A stretch of 64,000 bases of DNA from positions 8,361-72,360 of the forward strand of contig JANXPB010000147.1 of the NCBI GenBank assembly GCA_025357545.1, in the 5' to 3' direction. The notes below the pieces were generated by a model, which was not told where the DNA came from, did not search any database, and worked only from the letters and a program-made list of their open reading frames with translations. A program made the translations under genes and the position numbers. Positions 56,449-64,000 of this stretch are shown here, piece by piece (position 1 is the first letter of the stretch; each line of letters opens with the position of its first letter). The DNA is from Holophagaceae bacterium. Its GTDB lineage: Bacteria; Acidobacteriota; Holophagae; Holophagales; Holophagaceae.

Positions 56449-58650
56449 CTAGGGGAGGGCGGCGAGCAGTTCTTCCAATCGATAGGCCCTGAGCAACTGG
56501 CGGAGATGCTGGGCCAGGGGAAGGTCCTGAAGTTGATCTGCCAAGTCCAGGGCGGCGGGCGTGTCTCCGGAAGCCACGGCTTCCTTGAACAGGGCACACC
56601 AGCCCGGATCCAGCGCGCGCAGCCCATCCAGGGAGGGCGACCCGCTCTCCAGCGGCTCCTGGGCGAGGGTCCGGCGCAGAAAGCGCAGGCCAAGGTGGGT
56701 GGAGATCAGATCGAACAGCGCGGCCTCCTTGAAGGGCTTGCCCAGGAAATCATCGAAGCCATGCTGCCTCACTTCGGCGCGGTCCAGGTCGATCACCGAG
56801 GCGGAGATGGCGATGACCGGCGTGGGGCGCGAGCCCTCGGCCCTTTCAATCTGGCGGAGCTGGGCGATGGCCTCGAAGCCATCCATCCGGGGCATCCGCA
56901 GGTCCATCCAGACCAGCTCCGGCCGCTGCTGCGCCCACACTTCCAGGGCCTCGAGACCGTCCTGGGCGGTGTGGACCGCGAAGCCTACGGATTGGAACAA
57001 CTGGGTAAGCAGATCCCGGTTCTCCTCGCGGTCGTCCACCACCAGGAAGGAACAGGGCCGCTGCCCGGGTTCCAGACCCAGCACCTCGCCCCGGCCCTCA
57101 AGCTCCAGGGCGCTCTCGGCCTCCAGCAGCGTCACCTGGAAAGAGAACGTGCTGCCCACCCCCAGGCGGCTCACGGTGGTGATATCGCCCCCCATGAGCC
57201 GCACCAGGGCCCGGGAGATGTGCAAGCCCAGGCCCGTGCCTTCGGCCGCGCGTTGATTGGTGTCGGCCTGGAAGAACTGCTCGAACAGGCGGCCGAGGTC
57301 CACCGCGGAAATGCCGGGCCCCGTGTCCTGCACCTCGAAGCCGGCCAGGCTTCCGTGGTACCTGGCCCGCAGGGTGACGGAGCCCTCTTCCGTGAATTTG
57401 ATGGCATTGCCCAACAGATTCACGAGGACCTGCCGCAGCTTGCCTTCGTCCCCTTCCAAGAACAGCGGGAAGCCTGGCTGGATCTGCATCTCGAAGGCGA
57501 TGCCCTTGGTGGCGGCCCGCAATTCAAACAGGGCCCGAAGGGACTGGAAGAAGGGTCCGGATCCGAAGGGGGCGGTCCTCAGCGCGAGGCCCCCCGACTC
57601 GATCTTGGACAGGGAGAGCACGTCGTTGATGAGGCTCAACAGATGCTCGCCTGCATGGAGGATATGGCGCAGTTGGTCCTGGTCCTTGGTGGTGCGGTCG
57701 GGATTGCGGTGCATAAGCTGCGCGTAGCCGATGATGGCGTTCAGTGGGGTGCGCAGTTCGTGGCTCATGTTCGACAGGAAGGCGCTTTTCGCCCGATTGG
57801 CAGCCTGGGCCTTGGCCTCGGATACCCGCATGAGTTGGGCATCCTGCTCCAGGGCCAGCATGGACTGACGCAGCCGGTCGACCATGCGGTTGAGCTCCCG
57901 GCCCATGAGCGCCAATTCATCGGTGCCTTCCACCATGACGATGTGGTTCAGGTCCCCGTCGGCGGCGGCGCGCATGCCCTCCACCATGCGGACCACTTTG
58001 TGGCCCAGATCCCGGGCGATGAGGGAGCCCAGCACCAGGGCCAGGCCAGAGCCCCCCAGGATCATCAGGATGGCCAGGGTCTCCGAGCGCGCCACGCGGC
58101 GCGCGGAGGCCTGGACCTGCTCCCGGCCAGCGAGTTCCTGCTGAGCCGAAAGCTGGTTCAGGCGGCTCACGATCGAGTTCACGATGGGCACCAGGTTTTC
58201 ATCGAGAAACTGCCCGAGGCGCGCCAGGTCCGCCGAGTAAAACAGTACTTCGAGGTAGTCCATGCGGGTGCTGGCCTCGACCATGAGTTTCTCGGTTTCC
58301 GTCACCGCTTCGCGCTGGGCGGCATCCTGGTAGGAGGACCGGAACAACTCCCAGTCCAAGCGCAGGTTCAAGCGGGCCTGGTGGACCCTGCCCAGGCCGA
58401 GCTTAGGGTCGAGGGCACCGCTGCGCACCTGGCGCGCGGTGCCTACGATGTCCAGTACGTAGGCATCGGACACCGCCTTGAGTTGCCGGATGGGGATCAT
58501 GCGGTTCTCGAAGAGGCTGATGACCTCTTCCCCATCCTGCCGCAGGGATTTCACCTGCCAGAGGCTCACGCAGGCCAAGAGGGCTGCCAGCAGGCCGAAG
58601 GCCAGCGAAAGTTTGGTGGAGATGCGCAGACGGCTTAGGAGGGAGCCCAT
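56449..58650 (-). CDS. Hybrid sensor histidine kinase (periplasmic 4-helix sensor-HAMP-HisKA-HATPase-REC-HPt-like)
   Basis: Two TM segments flanking the sensor, HAMP, H-box SHELRTPLNAI, GTGLGLHIS, receiver (FLVVDD...WMDLRMPRMDG), and a C-terminal helical HPt-like tail. Confidence 0.9.
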   Translation of the reverse strand: MGSLLSRLRISTKLSLAFGLLAALLACVSLWQVKSLRQDGEEVISLFENRMIPIRQLKAVSDAYVLDIVGTARQVRSGALDPKLGLGRVHQARLNLRLDWELFRSSYQDAAQREAVTETEKLMVEASTRMDYLEVLFYSADLARLGQFLDENLVPIVNSIVSRLNQLSAQQELAGREQVQASARRVARSETLAILMILGGSGLALVLGSLIARDLGHKVVRMVEGMRAAADGDLNHIVMVEGTDELALMGRELNRMVDRLRQSMLALEQDAQLMRVSEAKAQAANRAKSAFLSNMSHELRTPLNAIIGYAQLMHRNPDRTTKDQDQLRHILHAGEHLLSLINDVLSLSKIESGGLALRTAPFGSGPFFQSLRALFELRAATKGIAFEMQIQPGFPLFLEGDEGKLRQVLVNLLGNAIKFTEEGSVTLRARYHGSLAGFEVQDTGPGISAVDLGRLFEQFFQADTNQRAAEGTGLGLHISRALVRLMGGDITTVSRLGVGSTFSFQVTLLEAESALELEGRGEVLGLEPGQRPCSFLVVDDREENRDLLTQLFQSVGFAVHTAQDGLEALEVWAQQRPELVWMDLRMPRMDGFEAIAQLRQIERAEGSRPTPVIAISASVIDLDRAEVRQHGFDDFLGKPFKEAALFDLISTHLGLRFLRRTLAQEPLESGSPSLDGLRALDPGWCALFKEAVASGDTPAALDLADQLQDLPLAQHLRQLLRAYRLEELLAALP

Positions 58651-58881
58651 GGTGGCCGGGGGAAAGGGTATCTCTTTCTAGGCGGGCGCGTGGAGGATGG
58701 CAAGGAGAATCGGGGATAGAAGGAATTCCCGGGATCAGGGAATGCAGCGTGAGATGCCAACCGACAGCCAAATTTGCTCAAAGCCCTGCCGCGCCAGGGG
58801 TGAGCGCCGGAGTGAAAAATGGGCGTCGGCTCCGTCGCGGACCTCGCCAAGGGGGAGAAGTTCCCGCAGAATCCATGGGTG

Positions 58882-59661
58882 ATGCGTTCCCTGCTCCGCG
58901 ACTTTCTGCTTCTGGCCTGCCTGGTGCTCGGTCCACCCACCCAGGTGCAGGCCCAAGGCGTGCGCATCGCCGCCGCTTCGGACCTGAGATGGGCCCTGGA
59001 GGAGCTCAAGGCCGGGTTCCTGAAGGAACACTCTGGAATGCCCGTGGCGATCACCTACGGTTCGTCTGGGAATTTCCATACCCAGCTCACCCAGAAGGCC
59101 CCCTTCGACCTTTTTCTGTCCGCAGACGTGGCCTACCCGCGGGAGCTCGCGGCGCAGGGATTTGGCGTGAAGAAATCCCTCTTCGTGTATGGCACTGGCC
59201 GGATCGTGCTCTGGGTGCCCCGGGCCTCGCCCATTGCCGTGGAAGCGCTCGGGTATGGCGCCCTGCTGGCCCCGGCGGTGAAGAAAATCGCCCTCGCCAA
59301 TCCCCGGCATGCGCCCTATGGCCGCGCTGCGGAAGCGGCCCTGCGGAAGGCGGGCCTCCTGGACCGCGTGCAGGCGCGGCTGGTGCTCGGCGAGAACATC
59401 TCCCAGGCCGCGCAGTTCGTGGAATCCGGCGCGGCGGACATCGGCTTCATCGCCCAATCCCTGGTGGTGGCAGGTCCGCTCAAGGACAAGGGCCGCTGGT
59501 GGCTGGTGCCCGAGCGGGACCATCCTGCCATCGAACAAGGGGGCGTAATCCTGTCCTGGGCCCAGGATCCGGTCGCCGCGGCGGCGTTCCGGGACTACCT
59601 GCTGGGGGGCAAGGGCACCGCCATCCTGAAAACGTATGGCTTCATCCGGCGAGAACCCTGA
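58882..59661 (+). CDS. modA: Molybdate ABC transporter substrate-binding protein
   Basis: Signal MRSLLRDFLLLACLVLG. AAASDLRWAL...ITYGSSGNFHTQL...DLFLSAD is ModA-typical. Alternative start at 58819. Confidence 0.88.
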   Translation: MRSLLRDFLLLACLVLGPPTQVQAQGVRIAAASDLRWALEELKAGFLKEHSGMPVAITYGSSGNFHTQLTQKAPFDLFLSADVAYPRELAAQGFGVKKSLFVYGTGRIVLWVPRASPIAVEALGYGALLAPAVKKIALANPRHAPYGRAAEAALRKAGLLDRVQARLVLGENISQAAQFVESGAADIGFIAQSLVVAGPLKDKGRWWLVPERDHPAIEQGGVILSWAQDPVAAAAFRDYLLGGKGTAILKTYGFIRREP

Positions 59662-59677
59662 TGGCTAAACTGCAGCC

Positions 59678-60343
59678 GTGATGGATTGGACCGCGCTGGC
59701 CCTGAGCCTGAAGCTCGCCTTCTGCACCACCTTGGTGCTGGTGCTGGTAGGCATGCCGCTGGCGGCGTGGCTGGCCTTTTCCCGCCGTCGCTGGAAGCCC
59801 CTGGTGGAAGCTCTGGTGGCGCTGCCCATCGTGCTGCCGCCCACCGTGCTTGGCTTCTACGTGCTCATGGCCCTGGGCCCCGCCAGCCCACTTGGCGCGC
59901 TGTGCGAGCGGTTCTTTGGCCACCGCCTGCCCTTCACCTTCCTGGGGCTGCTCATCGCCTCGGTGCTCTACAGCCTGCCCTTCGCAGTGCAGCCTTTCAG
60001 CGCGGCCTTCGCCTCCGTGGACCCACGCCTGCTGGAGGCCTCCGCCTGTTCCGGGGCCGGGCCGCTGAAGGCCTTCTTCCGGCTCATCCTGCCCCTCTCC
60101 TGGGCGGGGGTGCTCACGGGCTTAGTGCTGAGCTTCGCCCATACGCTGGGGGAATTCGGCGTGGTGCTGATGGTGGGCGGCAATGTCCCCGGCGCCACCC
60201 GCACGGCCTCCATCGCCATCTACGACCAGGTGCAGTCCCTCGACTACGCCGCCGCCGGACGCACCTCCGCTCTGCTGGTGGGCGTCTCCTTCGCCGCGTT
60301 GGTGCTGACCTACAGCCTGCGCAAAGTCAGGCTCTTTCCATGA
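59678..60343 (+). CDS. modB: Molybdate ABC transporter permease
   Basis: 221 aa with 5 TM segments. EAA-like loop and LGEFGVVLMVGGNVPG, typical of ModB. Confidence 0.9.
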   Translation: MMDWTALALSLKLAFCTTLVLVLVGMPLAAWLAFSRRRWKPLVEALVALPIVLPPTVLGFYVLMALGPASPLGALCERFFGHRLPFTFLGLLIASVLYSLPFAVQPFSAAFASVDPRLLEASACSGAGPLKAFFRLILPLSWAGVLTGLVLSFAHTLGEFGVVLMVGGNVPGATRTASIAIYDQVQSLDYAAAGRTSALLVGVSFAALVLTYSLRKVRLFP

Positions 60344-61434
60344 GCCGCGGCATGCAGTGCGATTTTGTGCGACGCTTCGCCGAGGGACCCTCCATCCGCG
60401 CGGCCTTCAGCTTGCCCACCGAGGCCGCCAGCGTCACGGTGCTGTTCGGGCCGTCGGGCTCCGGCAAGACCACGGTGCTGCGCTGCCTCGCGGGGCTCGA
60501 CCGGCCCGACCAGGGCTTTCTCCGCATGGAGGGCGAAGTCTGGTGTGATGCGGCTTCCGAGCTCCACCTGCCACCCCAGAAGCGGTCGCTGGGCTTCGTC
60601 TTCCAGGATGGCGCCCTGTTCCCCCACCTCAGCGCCGCGGGCAACCTGGCCTATCCCTTGACGGGGCTGCCGCAGGCCGAGCGCCACCGCCTCGTGCAGG
60701 CCATGGTGGAGCTCTTGGGCCTCGGCGGCCTGGAGCGCCGCCGCCCCGGCGAACTTTCCGGCGGCCAGCAGCAGCGGGTGGCCCTGGGCCGCGCGCTCAT
60801 CCGGCGGCCTCGGCTGGTGCTCATGGACGAGCCCCTCACAGCGCTGGACCGCCCCGCGCGGGAGGCCCTGCGGAACGACCTCAGTCGCGTATTCCGGGAG
60901 CTGGCCATCCCGGTGCTGTTGGTGACCCATGACCGGGACGAAGCCCTCCAGTTGGGGGACCGGATGCTCATGATGCAGGATGGCGAGATCCAGCAGGACG
61001 GCCCGCCCGCCGAAGTCTTCACCCGGCCGCGGACGCCCGCGCTTGCTGAGGCCCTGGGCATCGGCACCGTGGTGAAGGCCCGGGTGCTGGGCAGCGAGGG
61101 CGGCCTTGTGCGGCTATTGGCAGGCACGGCGGAGCTGCTCGCCCCTCACGAAGGCCCCCTCGGGGAATGGGTCCACGCCTGCATCCGCGGCGAGGGCGTC
61201 GCCGTGGAGCGGGAGCTTGATGCCCACGCCGACGCCTCCCCCCGCAACCGCCTGCGCGCGACCATCACCGGGCTGGAGCCCAAGGGCCCACTGGTGCGCC
61301 TGCACCTGGACTGCGGCTTCCCTCTGGAGGCCCTCGTCACCACCTGGGCCTGCGAGGATCTCGCCCTGAAAGCAGGCGATACCGTCCTCGCCATGATCAA
61401 GGCCACGGCGATCCATCTCATTCCGGTGATGTAG
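60340..61434 (+). CDS. modC: Molybdate ABC transporter ATP-binding protein with C-terminal TOBE/Mop domain
   Basis: ATGA overlap with modB. GPSGSGKTT, LSGGQQQRVALGRAL, LMDEP, and a C-terminal TOBE-like tail. The 582-aa ORF from 59686 is an upstream extension in the same reading frame, running through modB in a different frame from modB. Confidence 0.92.
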   Translation: MSRGMQCDFVRRFAEGPSIRAAFSLPTEAASVTVLFGPSGSGKTTVLRCLAGLDRPDQGFLRMEGEVWCDAASELHLPPQKRSLGFVFQDGALFPHLSAAGNLAYPLTGLPQAERHRLVQAMVELLGLGGLERRRPGELSGGQQQRVALGRALIRRPRLVLMDEPLTALDRPAREALRNDLSRVFRELAIPVLLVTHDRDEALQLGDRMLMMQDGEIQQDGPPAEVFTRPRTPALAEALGIGTVVKARVLGSEGGLVRLLAGTAELLAPHEGPLGEWVHACIRGEGVAVERELDAHADASPRNRLRATITGLEPKGPLVRLHLDCGFPLEALVTTWACEDLALKAGDTVLAMIKATAIHLIPVM

Positions 61435-61536
61435 GTCGATGTTCAGAGGCCGAGCTCAACATTCTTCGTTAGGTGGGCGGCCTACGGCGGATCATGTCCA
61501 GCAGCCCACAGGCAGCCACACGGCACCTTCGATTTC

Positions 61537-62700
61537 ATGAGCATGGAAAACGATCCGATGCAGATCACACCCTTCACCATCCATGTTCCCGATGAAGTGT
61601 TATCCGACCTCAGGACGCGCATCCAGAACACGCGCTGGCCTGATCCGGCGCCCGGCACTGCGTGGGCGCAGGGGACCGATCTCGTGTACCTGAAGCGCTT
61701 GTTTGGCTACTGGGCCGTTGAATTTGATTGGCGGGTGCAGGAGCGCCGGCTCAACACGTTCAAGCACTTTCGCGCTGAGCTGGGCGGAATCCACATTCAT
61801 TTCGTCCACGAACGAGCTCGGGAGGGAAATGGCATTCCTCTGATCCTGACCCATGGTTGGCCCAGCTCCTTTCTCGAACTCCTGCCGCTGGTGCCCCTCC
61901 TGACCAACCCGAAAGCCCACGGTATCGACGGACCGGCCTTCGACCTCGTCATTCCATCCCTGCCGGGGTATGGCTTTTCGGAACGACCGGCCGAGGCAAC
62001 CTACCGCACCGTCGCCCGGCTGTGGCATGAGCTCATGCGCGGACTCGGCTATGAGCGCTATGGAGCTGGCGGCGGCGATTTCGGCGCGGGTGTCGCCACC
62101 TACATGGCCCTTGAGAACCCGGCGCCCATGATCGGCATCCATCTGACGACGATGGAACTCTGGCCGCCAACGGGTGAAGGGACGCGGCCGTTGACCGAGG
62201 TCGAAAGCAAGTATGTCGCCCAGGTGCGTCAATGGGATGAGGTGGAGCGGGGCTATTCCGCGATCCAGTCGACGAGGCCCCAAACACTCGGCTATGCGCT
62301 GAACGATTCGCCCGCCGGGCTCGCGGCTTGGATTCTTGAAAAGTGGCGCGCGTGGAGCGACTCCGGCGGCGATCTCGAAGCGCACTTTTCGGAGGAGTTT
62401 CTCCTGACGCTGCTCACGCTCTACTGGGCCACGGAGACCATCACCCCTTCGATGCGCGATTATTTCGACAACCGGTGGCATGGGGCGGACCTTCCACCCG
62501 GCGTCCGCGTGCAGGCGCCCGCGGGATTTGCGAACTTCGACCACAACTTTGTGTCGGAAGGCAGCCCGCCGAAGGAATGGGCGGAGCGGCTGTACGACAT
62601 TCGCCGGTGGACCTCAATGCCGACCGGCGGGCACTTTGGCGCCGCAGAGGAGCCAGAGCGCCTCGCGCGCGACATCGCAGCCTTCTTCGCGGAGATTTGA
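61537..62700 (+). CDS. Epoxide hydrolase (alpha/beta hydrolase with EHN N-terminal domain)
   Basis: PFTIHVPDEVLSDLRTRIQNTRWPD, LILTHGWPSSF (HGWP oxyanion motif), GGDFGA nucleophile elbow, and C-terminal GGHFGA. Confidence 0.88.
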   Translation: MSMENDPMQITPFTIHVPDEVLSDLRTRIQNTRWPDPAPGTAWAQGTDLVYLKRLFGYWAVEFDWRVQERRLNTFKHFRAELGGIHIHFVHERAREGNGIPLILTHGWPSSFLELLPLVPLLTNPKAHGIDGPAFDLVIPSLPGYGFSERPAEATYRTVARLWHELMRGLGYERYGAGGGDFGAGVATYMALENPAPMIGIHLTTMELWPPTGEGTRPLTEVESKYVAQVRQWDEVERGYSAIQSTRPQTLGYALNDSPAGLAAWILEKWRAWSDSGGDLEAHFSEEFLLTLLTLYWATETITPSMRDYFDNRWHGADLPPGVRVQAPAGFANFDHNFVSEGSPPKEWAERLYDIRRWTSMPTGGHFGAAEEPERLARDIAAFFAEI

Positions 62701-62715
62701 TTTCGCGCAGACAAA

Positions 62716-62827
62716 CTCTGGAAGCCCTCGCCACCATCCGGGCCCGCCAAGATCTGGCACTGAAAGAAGGCGAGCCGTTCTCGCATTGGTCGAGGCCAGG
62801 GCGATTCACCTCATTCTGGTGCTGTAG
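62716..62827 (+). pseudogene. Frameshifted remnant of a modC-like 3' end (TOBE domain tail)
   Basis: Manual alignment to 61324-61434: 89 of 111 columns identical (~80%), one 1-nt deletion, shared stop position. Translation LEALATIRARQDLALKEGE / VLALVEARAIHLILVL versus modC LEALVTTWACEDLALKAGDTVLAMIKATAIHLIPVM. Confidence 0.8.
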
Positions 62828-62883
62828 GCAAGCTCTCCGCAACTAGGGTCATAATCCGGAGCTAGCTCTCATCGTGAGGCCCC

Positions 62884-63927
62884 ATGTCGTTCGCAATTCC
62901 AAATTTCACAAAGAACAGTATTAATCGTGCCGGCAAAGTTTTAATTGATCCACACGCGTTGCCAGCGGCCCGGGCAGAGGCTTTAGCTGTGATCACTCAT
63001 TGGCGTTCTTGCCACGCCTACCCCGTGAACACATTCCAAGCAACTTTGCGAGGCCGGGTAAAAAAGATTTGCGATACTGCGCTGGTTGCACAGCGCCTAA
63101 AGCGAATCCCATCCATGGAGAAAAAGCTCCAAATTAATCACGGGATGCAGCTTGTTCGGATGCAGGATATTGGTGGTTTGAGAGCCGTCGTGGATTCAGT
63201 CTCTCAAGTACGCAAACTTCAGGCCATGTACACTGATGGATCGCTCACCCATGAATTAATTGACACCGATGACTATATCGAAATACCGAAAGGTTCTGGC
63301 TACAGAAGCCTGCACCTGATCTATAAATACAAGAATCCGATCGAGTCGCCATATGACGGTCTTCACCTCGAACTTCAGATTAGAACGCGGCTTCAACATG
63401 CGTGGGCTACTGCCGTAGAAATCATTGGGACCTTTTTAAACCAAGCCCTGAAGTCCAGTGAGGGAGCAACAGAATGGCTCTATTACTTCAAGGTGGTCAG
63501 TGCTGCCTTCGCCTTGGTAGAGAAAACCACCACATCGAAGGAATTCACCGATTGGACACCAGCCCGAATAGCACAGACATGCATTGGGCTCGAGAAGGAT
63601 CTTGATGTTCGACGCAAACTCCAGGCATTTGCAGTTACTGCAAATGCCATCACCTCAAGCAAAGTTGCCGGAAGTTATCATTTGATTGTGCTGAACCCCG
63701 TCGCTCGAACGGTTTCCGTCCAATCCTATGGCAAACGGAGATTGGTAGAGGCCAACGAAGCCTATGCAAAAGCTGAACTATCAGCTTCAACTATTGGTGA
63801 GGACATTCAGACCGTTTTAGTGGCAACAGATACGGTGGAGTCGCTCCGAAGGGCATACCCTAACTATTTCTTGGACACGAGGCAGTTCATTGCTGCCCTC
63901 AACAGAATTCAAAAATTGGCTGAATGA
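62884..63927 (+). CDS. RelA/SpoT-synthetase-domain protein with C-terminal extension (toxSAS / CapRel-like candidate)
   Basis: Synthetase motifs RLKRIPSMEKK, DIGGLRAVV, GYRSLHLIY, ELQIRTRLQHAWA. No hydrolase domain. ~130-aa C-terminal region with YPNY (63856-63867). G+C is visibly lower than the flanks (hand counts of 42% and 55% on two lines). Confidence 0.85.
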   Translation: MSFAIPNFTKNSINRAGKVLIDPHALPAARAEALAVITHWRSCHAYPVNTFQATLRGRVKKICDTALVAQRLKRIPSMEKKLQINHGMQLVRMQDIGGLRAVVDSVSQVRKLQAMYTDGSLTHELIDTDDYIEIPKGSGYRSLHLIYKYKNPIESPYDGLHLELQIRTRLQHAWATAVEIIGTFLNQALKSSEGATEWLYYFKVVSAAFALVEKTTTSKEFTDWTPARIAQTCIGLEKDLDVRRKLQAFAVTANAITSSKVAGSYHLIVLNPVARTVSVQSYGKRRLVEANEAYAKAELSASTIGEDIQTVLVATDTVESLRRAYPNYFLDTRQFIAALNRIQKLAE

Positions 63928-64000
63928 AGAATATGGCCTCATCTCCTTCAGACCCAACAATTCGTTTAACCAAAAGGTGGCGTTAGGTTGTCGTCTACTT

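Follow-up and report, generated by a model that had tools for sequence, protein, structure and literature searches.

CapRel^SJ46, from Salmonella phage SJ46 and E. coli prophages (PDB 7ZTB, 9ERV), is a fused toxin-antitoxin of the toxic small alarmone synthetase (toxSAS) type that acts as a tRNA pyrophosphokinase. In its published topology, anchors precede a sheet of three strands, the second and third of which are separated by a helix, and a C-terminal extension follows (PMC9712102). ATP is coordinated by R79 and R116, the substitution Y155A abolishes defence, and substitutions in the autoinhibition interface (R116 included) or in the YXXY motif lead to constitutive toxicity (PMC9712102). Three unrelated triggers of CapRel proteins are known: the capsid protein Gp57 (PMC9712102), Gp54^Bas11 (PMC11578894) and Gp0.4-FtsZ (PMC13423816). 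The complex of CapRel^SJ46 with Gp54 of phage Bas11 is the structure 9ERV (PMC11578894). A variable sensor beside a conserved switch and core is the CapRel pattern, sensor divergence changes the trigger, as shown by CapRel^Ebc, and all three of the fused CapRels tested so far protect against phages (PMC9712102). More generally, toxSAS enzymes that are blocked at the donor site by a YXXY-bearing pseudo-zinc-finger domain (pseudo-ZFD, or pZFD) pyrophosphorylate tRNA; in (pp)pApp producers the block is at the acceptor site and is exerted by Tis1-like domains (PMC11782079). The present report concerns a gene at the downstream edge of a 64,000-nucleotide stretch of DNA (the window) from a Holophagaceae bacterium (contig JANXPB010000147.1). 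This CapRel-like gene, at positions 62884-63927 of the forward strand, very likely encodes a single-polypeptide toxin-antitoxin of the fused CapRel subfamily of toxSAS, with a predicted role in phage defence.

Among the PDB sequences, 7ZTB and 9ERV were the only full-length matches to the 347-residue protein (phmmer, E 5.6e-38, 134 bits, residues 8-341 aligned to 15-368). RelQ and RelP trailed at E ~1e-8 (37 bits for RelQ), and only over the catalytic core (residues ~66-178). A profile of 29 family members, searched against solved structures, scored CapRel^SJ46 at 201 bits (E 2.1e-58, over residues 7-341), RelQ at 62 and RelP at 54 bits (E 1e-13 to 1e-16, core only), and long RelA/SpoT homologues (RSH) at 31 bits or less; the FaRel2 and Tas1 structures were not detected by this profile at E <= 10. 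The class placement is a score ranking against all solved RSH structures, used in place of a toxSYNTH tree with FaRel, FaRel2, PhRel, PhRel2, Tas1 and RelV references. In a Foldseek search of the PDB with the AlphaFold2 (AF2) model described below, 7ZTB and 9ERV were again at the top (E 3.5e-21, TM 0.69-0.70, ~353 columns), and every other small alarmone synthetase (SAS) or long RSH among the matches listed aligned over the core only, with a TMq of at most 0.43.

The sole match in PADLOC was the candidate system PDC-S33 (profile PDLC04999; 386 bits, E 3.9e-116), with residues 1-343 aligned to positions 1-342 of the 349 in the profile. CapRel^SJ46, when run through the same library, also matched PDC-S33 only, over its full length (286 bits, E 1.4e-85). 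Because both proteins match it end to end, PDC-S33 is in practice PADLOC's model of the fused CapRels. The best NCBIfam match was the YjbM (RelQ) equivalog NF053588, at 52.7 bits against a cut-off of 320 and over residues 66-177 only. A tblastn search of phage genomes recovered the gene of phage SJ46 itself. The protein is assigned to the fused CapRels, and not to the housekeeping synthetases, because every sequence- and structure-level test that was run points to CapRel and none to a housekeeping enzyme.

Residues were mapped through a pairwise alignment of the query with CapRel^SJ46, in the published numbering of the latter. All ten functionally probed residues of CapRel^SJ46 are identical in the query. 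At the ATP and catalytic site, R79, R116 and Y155 correspond to R71, R100 and Y140; in the autoinhibition interface, to which R116 (R100) also belongs, A77, V338, L339, A341 and A351 correspond to A69, V311, L312, A314 and A324; and the two tyrosines of the YXXY motif, Y352 and Y355, correspond to Y325 and Y328. Sequence identity is 39% in toxSYNTH, and the switch and C-terminal helix together reach 47%. The pZFD of the query is a few residues shorter than that of CapRel^SJ46 and aligns with several gaps. One of these gaps takes the position of the capsid-contact residue L307, and L280 is represented by V261.

The open reading frame (ORF) is complete, with an ATG start and a TGA stop at 63925-63927, and the longest ORF on the opposite strand is at most 59 residues. 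A Shine-Dalgarno-like GAGG (62876-62879, forward strand), read from the sequence, lies 4 nt upstream of the ATG. The original prediction had described a 347-residue ORF carrying all of the synthetase motifs, and both the ORF list and the translation bear this out: R71-x-K73-xxx-S77-xxx-K81, D95-IGGLR100, G139-YRSLH144 and E163-LQIRT168..Q171..W174-A175 are all present. A family alignment of 79 members shows no variation at R71, K73, K81, D95, R100, Y140, H144, E163, Q165 or R167; S77 is kept in 78% of that alignment and is invariant in a smaller alignment of 29 sequences (A1). The same prediction held that the protein lacks HD, TGS and ACT domains, and indeed none of them was found by Pfam at E <= 1 in the 347-residue protein, RelA_SpoT (PF04607, residues 70-176, E 2e-16) being the only match at that threshold; the domains of long RSH proteins are also excluded because 347 residues leave no room for them. 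The predicted motif near the C-terminus is likewise present, as A324-Y-P-N-Y328-F-L-D331 (YPNY being encoded at 63856-63867). It had been placed at the end of an extension of ~130 residues; 16 further residues, the terminal helix, follow it, and the non-catalytic C-terminal part amounts to ~150 residues.

The domain layout was derived from an AF2 model for which the family alignment served as input (pLDDT 77, pTM 0.75). The N-terminal helical extension (residues 1-62; 62884-63069) has modelled helices at 10-21, 27-43 and 45-62, aligns to residues 15-70 of CapRel^SJ46, and contains an invariant WR[AS]CHAYPxNTFQATLR block (invariant columns W40-R56 in A1). It is followed by the toxSYNTH core, a nucleotidyl/pyrophosphotransferase domain of the RelA/SpoT type (residues 63-190; 63070-63453), which corresponds to PF04607 and carries R71 and R100 (ATP adenine), Y140 of the G-loop, D95, E163, Q165 and R167. 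The helical anchor or linker (residues 191-258; 63454-63657), with helices 196-212, 226-239 and 242-256, is equivalent to α7-α9 of CapRel^SJ46 (PMC9712102). The pZFD, a putative trigger sensor and cis-antitoxin (residues 259-316; 63658-63831), is a cysteine-free β-β-α-β unit (strands 265-271 and 276-282, helix 287-304, strand 309-314). The switch segment (residues 317-332; 63832-63879) contains Y325-P-N-Y328, with V311, L312, A314 and A324 as its scaffold, and the C-terminal helix (residues 333-347; 63880-63924; modelled helix 333-346) would be the second anchor in CapRel^SJ46 terms. All of these features are on the forward strand.

In the model, the C-terminal domain matches the published pseudo-ZFD topology. 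Two short helices are predicted at 318-324 and 326-329, the second of which is formed by the PNY of the motif; the model thus places YPNY in a short helix between two helices, as the published closed state has it. Compared with the open crystal form of CapRel^SJ46, the model has a global rmsd of 9-10 Å despite a TM score of 0.69. The motif helix and the large rmsd are compatible with the prediction of a closed state, although they are no proof of it. The toxSYNTH part is basic, as in CapRel^SJ46 (pI 9.6, net charge +8), and the C-terminal 152 residues are non-acidic (pI 9.0, net charge +3). The earlier proposal of a fused, CapRel-like toxin-antitoxin is therefore supported by the full-length match to CapRel^SJ46, the ten identical residues, the pseudo-ZFD model and PDC-S33.

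The gene appears to act alone. As originally described, no separate antitoxin-like ORF is present upstream in the window, where only a remnant of modC (see below) precedes the gene, and 73 nt separate its end from the end of the window. In 83 related loci, no neighbouring ORF of at least 70 residues is conserved within 5 kb, the commonest neighbour cluster being found in seven loci with variable position and strand; nor is any ORF of 30-160 residues within 500 bp conserved. The homology of the window to every relative at the DNA level ends at the ORF boundaries. The functional unit is taken to be a single gene because no neighbour is conserved in these loci, and it is improbable, for the same reason, which extends to large and small neighbours alike, that a partner gene has been lost to the end of the window as had been suggested earlier. 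A 20-codon ORF (MKNMASSPSDPTIRLTKRWR) is present at 63924-63986 on the forward strand, with its ATG overlapping the stop codon of the CapRel-like gene (ATGA). The conservation check on the relatives covered adjacent ORFs of at least 30 residues and was blind to an ORF of this size, which is probably fortuitous.

The surroundings of the nearest relatives differ from one to the next. The closest named relative, from Geothrix sp. 21YS21S-2 (locus L002, 77% identity), is surrounded by hypothetical genes, a tyrosine integrase and fragments of IS91/Y2 transposases and of a TnpB. The closest relative with flanking sequence (L164-L168, 81% identity) lies between an HNH endonuclease on one side and a serine recombinase on the other; its upstream genes encode an RNase_T protein, a Sel1-repeat protein and the HNH endonuclease, and DUF6891 accompanies the recombinase downstream. 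Both are mobile-element settings, and neither shares a neighbour with the window at the DNA level.

The family is broad. An exhaustive phmmer search of 1.84 billion representatives returned 1,327 clusters at 50% identity with E <= 1e-30, nearly all members of which are 340-375 residues long and aligned end to end. A family-alignment search of genome contigs located relatives in 520 GTDB species representatives, distributed over Pseudomonadota, Planctomycetota, Cyanobacteria, Verrucomicrobiota, Acidobacteriota, Bacteroidota, Nitrospirota, candidate-phyla-radiation lineages and one metagenome-assembled genome (MAG) of Methanosarcinales. Relatives were also found on 107 plasmids and on 102 IMG/VR viral contigs, and the distribution as a whole is mobile and resembles that of defence genes. 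The gene is lower in GC than its flanks in 67 of the 68 loci with enough flanking sequence (L002-L082; mean difference -11.8 points), with gene values of 0.30-0.60 in hosts of 0.42 to 0.73, and the family looks recently acquired, or compositionally constrained, nearly everywhere. Full-length relatives of 44-48% identity occur in the Methanosarcinales archaeon MAG (L054), in Magasanikbacteria (L053) and in Saccharimonadia (L063 and L074), these assignments being uncorrected for binning contamination.

Conservation is unevenly distributed along the protein. Family entropy is lowest in the strand-3/switch segment (0.93) and the catalytic core (1.23), and highest in the linker at residues 216-240 (2.38), the terminal helix (2.06) and the pZFD (1.9-2.0). 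The motif AYPNYF is present in 70 of 79 relatives. In comparisons with the two closest of them, pN is 0.12-0.18 and pS is 0.79-0.89; as synonymous sites are saturated, the conclusion on selection is qualitative, with a regional ranking of dN and no value of dN/dS. The low pN beside a saturated pS indicates strong purifying selection. Regional dN rises from 0.017-0.033 in the switch through 0.11-0.18 in toxSYNTH and 0.22-0.33 in the pZFD to 0.32-0.45 in the terminal helix. The dN of the pZFD is 2-3 times that of the catalytic core, and the pZFD and anchors have a dN 2-10 times higher than the core and switch. This distribution of variable and conserved parts agrees with the CapRel pattern.

Two kinds of variant were observed in the family. 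All nine relatives in which the second tyrosine of YXXY is replaced carry isoleucine for threonine at position 332 (FLDI), and members with a variant YXXY may be sub-clades with an altered switch. In four longer proteins, P0249 (519 residues), P0253 (525), P0273 (532) and P0242 (438), the full CapRel-like module, with its AYPNYFLD, is extended at the C-terminus by a further domain that the window gene lacks. This domain is DUF7226 (PF23871) in P0249, P0253 and P0273, slightly under the Pfam cut-off in the first two, and DUF2188 (PF09954) in P0242; P0253 also has a weak match to a winged helix-turn-helix-like domain. In these extended proteins the additional domain may have a regulatory or sensing role, which would make them a variant architecture.

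At its locus the CapRel-like gene is foreign in composition. A sharp drop in G+C near 62850, and a recombination scar just before the gene, had both been noted previously and were both recovered: in 300-nt windows, G+C falls from 0.61-0.66 to 0.46-0.53 at ~62800-62850, and the scar is a degenerate, frameshifted copy of the 3'-end of modC (the end of the TOBE domain) at ~62716-62827 on the forward strand, with 79% column identity to 61290-61440 in a DNA alignment. The remnant corresponds to 61320-61434, the final ~110 nt of the modC-like gene; a 1-bp deletion breaks its frame, and the TAG stop is the same. The low-GC DNA starts directly after it, and the remnant is thus the upstream edge of a low-GC insertion, the other end of which is located past position 64000. 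The gene itself has a GC content of 0.483, compared with 0.63 for positions 1-62800 of the window, and a third-position GC (GC3) of 0.499, compared with 0.89 for the adjoining modC. The junction is not the artefact of a single assembler, because an independent Logan contig (L001) spans it with 100% identity over 62634-63947.

The genes upstream of the insertion are ordinary chromosomal genes of a high-GC organism. They include a hybrid histidine kinase (56449-58650, reverse strand); a group at 58819-61434 made up of a ModA-type binding protein, a permease and a modC-like ABC ATPase that carries a TOBE domain; and an epoxide hydrolase (61537-62700) whose closest named relatives are from Acidobacteriota (Geothrix, Thermoanaerobaculia and Vicinamibacterales). 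No tRNA gene was found anywhere in the window, and hence no tRNA-linked integration site is visible. The CapRel-like gene is a horizontally acquired gene inserted, in a high-GC chromosome, beside this locus of mod genes (for a molybdate-type ABC transporter) and epoxide hydrolase. The epoxide-hydrolase gene is bracketed by the end of modC and the modC-end remnant, which points to an earlier rearrangement at 62716-62827, or to a second mod operon that has been replaced there. In a promoter and terminator scan of 62500-64000, the single hit was a weak, minus-strand, terminator-like hairpin within the modC remnant, which is uninformative.

A mechanism can be proposed for the query on the model of CapRel^SJ46, with toxicity, autoinhibition, a tRNA substrate, a phage trigger and an abortive-infection phenotype all inferred by homology. 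In the uninfected cell, the C-terminal pZFD would fold back onto the N-terminal toxSYNTH domain, and Y325-P-N-Y328 would insert between R71 and R100, blocking the ATP (pyrophosphate-donor) site. Upon infection, a phage protein or a phage-host complex would bind the surface of the pZFD and anchors and stop the recoil. With ATP as the donor, the open enzyme would then pyrophosphorylate tRNA at its 3' CCA end, which would halt translation and abort the infection. The tRNA substrate is predicted because donor-site neutralization by a YXXY-bearing pZFD goes with tRNA targeting (PMC11782079) and because toxSYNTH is basic.

Several observations weigh against this assignment, or limit how far it can be carried. 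Overall identity to CapRel^SJ46 is just 35% (324 aligned residues) and only ~20% in the sensor pZFD, and at this level the trigger is not predictable and the substrate is an extrapolation. The pLDDT of the C-terminal domain in the AF2 model is moderate (57-88). The YXXY motif is not absolutely required in the family, since its tyrosines are replaced in some members: the second in nine of 79 relatives (AYPNFF in seven and AYPNLF in two), and the first by phenylalanine in five of the 29 A1 sequences (AFPNYF). No σ70-like promoter was found in the scan of 62500-64000, a literature search for PDC-S33 returned no paper, and no member of the clade that is 58-85% identical to the query has been reported as tested. 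Finally, a locus-specific partner can be excluded only indirectly, from the loci of the 83 relatives and the 73 nt downstream, as the sequence considered ends at 64000.

Other explanations of the gene were weighed against the same evidence. That it encodes a housekeeping SAS of the RelQ, RelP or RelV type, making (p)ppGpp for stress signalling and carrying an unrelated C-terminal extension, would account for the matches of the core to RelQ and RelP structures (E ~1e-8, or 1e-13 to 1e-16 with the profile) and for YjbM (RelQ) being the best NCBIfam model. This explanation is scarcely credible, as the YjbM score falls far short of its equivalog cut-off (52.7 bits vs 320), RelQ and RelP cover residues ~66-178 only, whereas CapRel^SJ46 aligns over the full length and has three times their bit score, and the extension is homologous to the CapRel antitoxin/sensor with its YXXY kept. 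Two further points against a housekeeping enzyme are the distribution, which is patchy across phyla and takes in plasmids and viral contigs, and a GC content lower than that of the host in 67 of 68 loci. A second possibility is a nucleotide-targeting toxSAS, producing (pp)pApp like FaRel and Tas1 or pppGpp like the GRel protein Pag1B of PANGU, which would need a partner (an antitoxin, an immunity protein or a nucleoid-associated sensor) encoded just past the window edge. Only 73 nt follow the gene, trans-activated toxSAS proteins with C-terminal domains do exist (bioRxiv 10.64898/2026.04.06.716658), and the contig of one relative (L164) has an HU-type gene (PF00216) ~4 kb away. Nevertheless, such an enzyme is very unlikely here: no neighbour is conserved in the 83 loci (commonest cluster, seven) and neither is a small adjacent ORF; the C-terminal region (pI 9.0, net +3) is unlike the acidic, DNA-mimicking DMK domain of Pag1B; the donor-site module of pZFD and YXXY is coupled in the literature to tRNA-targeting toxSAS (PMC11782079); and CapRel is the top match, whereas the Tas1 and FaRel2 structures were not detected at E <= 10.

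The protein might also be a genuine member of the CapRel family that serves in this host mainly as a selfish addiction or stabilization module of a mobile element, or that is unexpressed cargo. The foreign composition, the position at an insertion edge, the recombinases and transposases beside relatives, and the lack of a promoter-like site in 62500-64000 are all in keeping with this. It is judged unlikely in view of the intact ORF, in which all catalytic and regulatory residues are kept under strong purifying selection, and of the phage defence recorded for three out of three fused CapRels (PMC9712102). Classical post-segregational killing should moreover need two products of differing stability, which a toxin-antitoxin fused in cis could presumably not provide. 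A different question arises from the environmental clade to which the protein belongs. Its members, from Acidobacteriota, Burkholderiales and other lineages, share 58-85% identity and have a sensor that is comparatively well conserved among their hosts, yet resembles that of CapRel^SJ46 at just ~20% identity. Because hosts with unrelated phages share this sensor, the clade might recognize a different, more universal class of trigger, such as a host factor perturbed by infection (cf. CapRel^Ebc-FtsZ), or might use another acceptor substrate, with the DUF7226 and DUF2188 relatives adding a regulatory layer. The chance of this is small, and the evidence gives no indication of it.

As a fused CapRel, the gene is an ordinary further member of a large family that is already catalogued (PADLOC PDC-S33), and it brings no new mechanism. 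Its importance is modest, in that it adds an acidobacterial example to the fused CapRel defence family and settles no open question. The value of the analysis lies in a correct annotation, for which "fused toxSAS/CapRel defence protein" is preferable to "GTP pyrophosphokinase", and in observations at the level of the family. What PADLOC lists as the unnamed candidate PDC-S33 is in effect its model of the CapRel family, and the family is documented here as a very widespread, consistently low-GC, single-gene mobile module, with occasional extra C-terminal domains.

When set beside known systems, the protein shares the synthetase fold and the catalytic motifs with RelQ and RelP (SAS1 and SAS2), but the similarity is limited to a core of ~110 residues, and the N-terminal helices and the pZFD with its YXXY are unmatched. 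Pag1B of PANGU type I, a GRel toxSAS, is also an anti-phage protein, with toxSYNTH at its N-terminus and a C-terminal domain that is regulatory; its system is bicistronic, with the nucleoid-associated protein (NAP) sensor Pag1A, and has an acidic, activator-binding DMK domain and pppGpp as product (bioRxiv 10.64898/2026.04.06.716658). The query, in contrast, has a non-acidic pZFD with YXXY, homology of the CapRel type and no partner conserved in the 83 loci. Membership of PANGU type I was rejected, as there is no conserved NAP neighbour in the loci of the 83 relatives and the C-terminal domain is not acidic. FaRel2/ATfaRel2, PhRel/ATphRel and the unfused CapRels are expected to share the same toxSYNTH chemistry, and in them, too, a YXXY-bearing pZFD neutralizes the toxin at its donor site (PMC11782079); they differ in being bicistronic, with a separate antitoxin acting in trans (circularly permuted in ATfaRel2), where that of the query is fused in cis. 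CapRel^Ebc of Enterobacter chengduensis, set beside the query by its description, is likewise a fused CapRel and combines the same toxin with a C-terminal sensor that varies (PMC9712102). It senses the complex of T7 Gp0.4 with FtsZ (PMC13423816), and the trigger class of the query is not indicated. The closest system is CapRel^SJ46. It is longer (373 residues, compared with 347) and is encoded in enterobacterial prophages, whereas the query lies in a chromosomal low-GC insertion. Both proteins consist of N-terminal helices, toxSYNTH, helical anchors, a pseudo-ZFD, a YXXY switch and a C-terminal helix, and both are products of a single gene that match PDC-S33, have a basic catalytic domain, and are most variable in the sensor.

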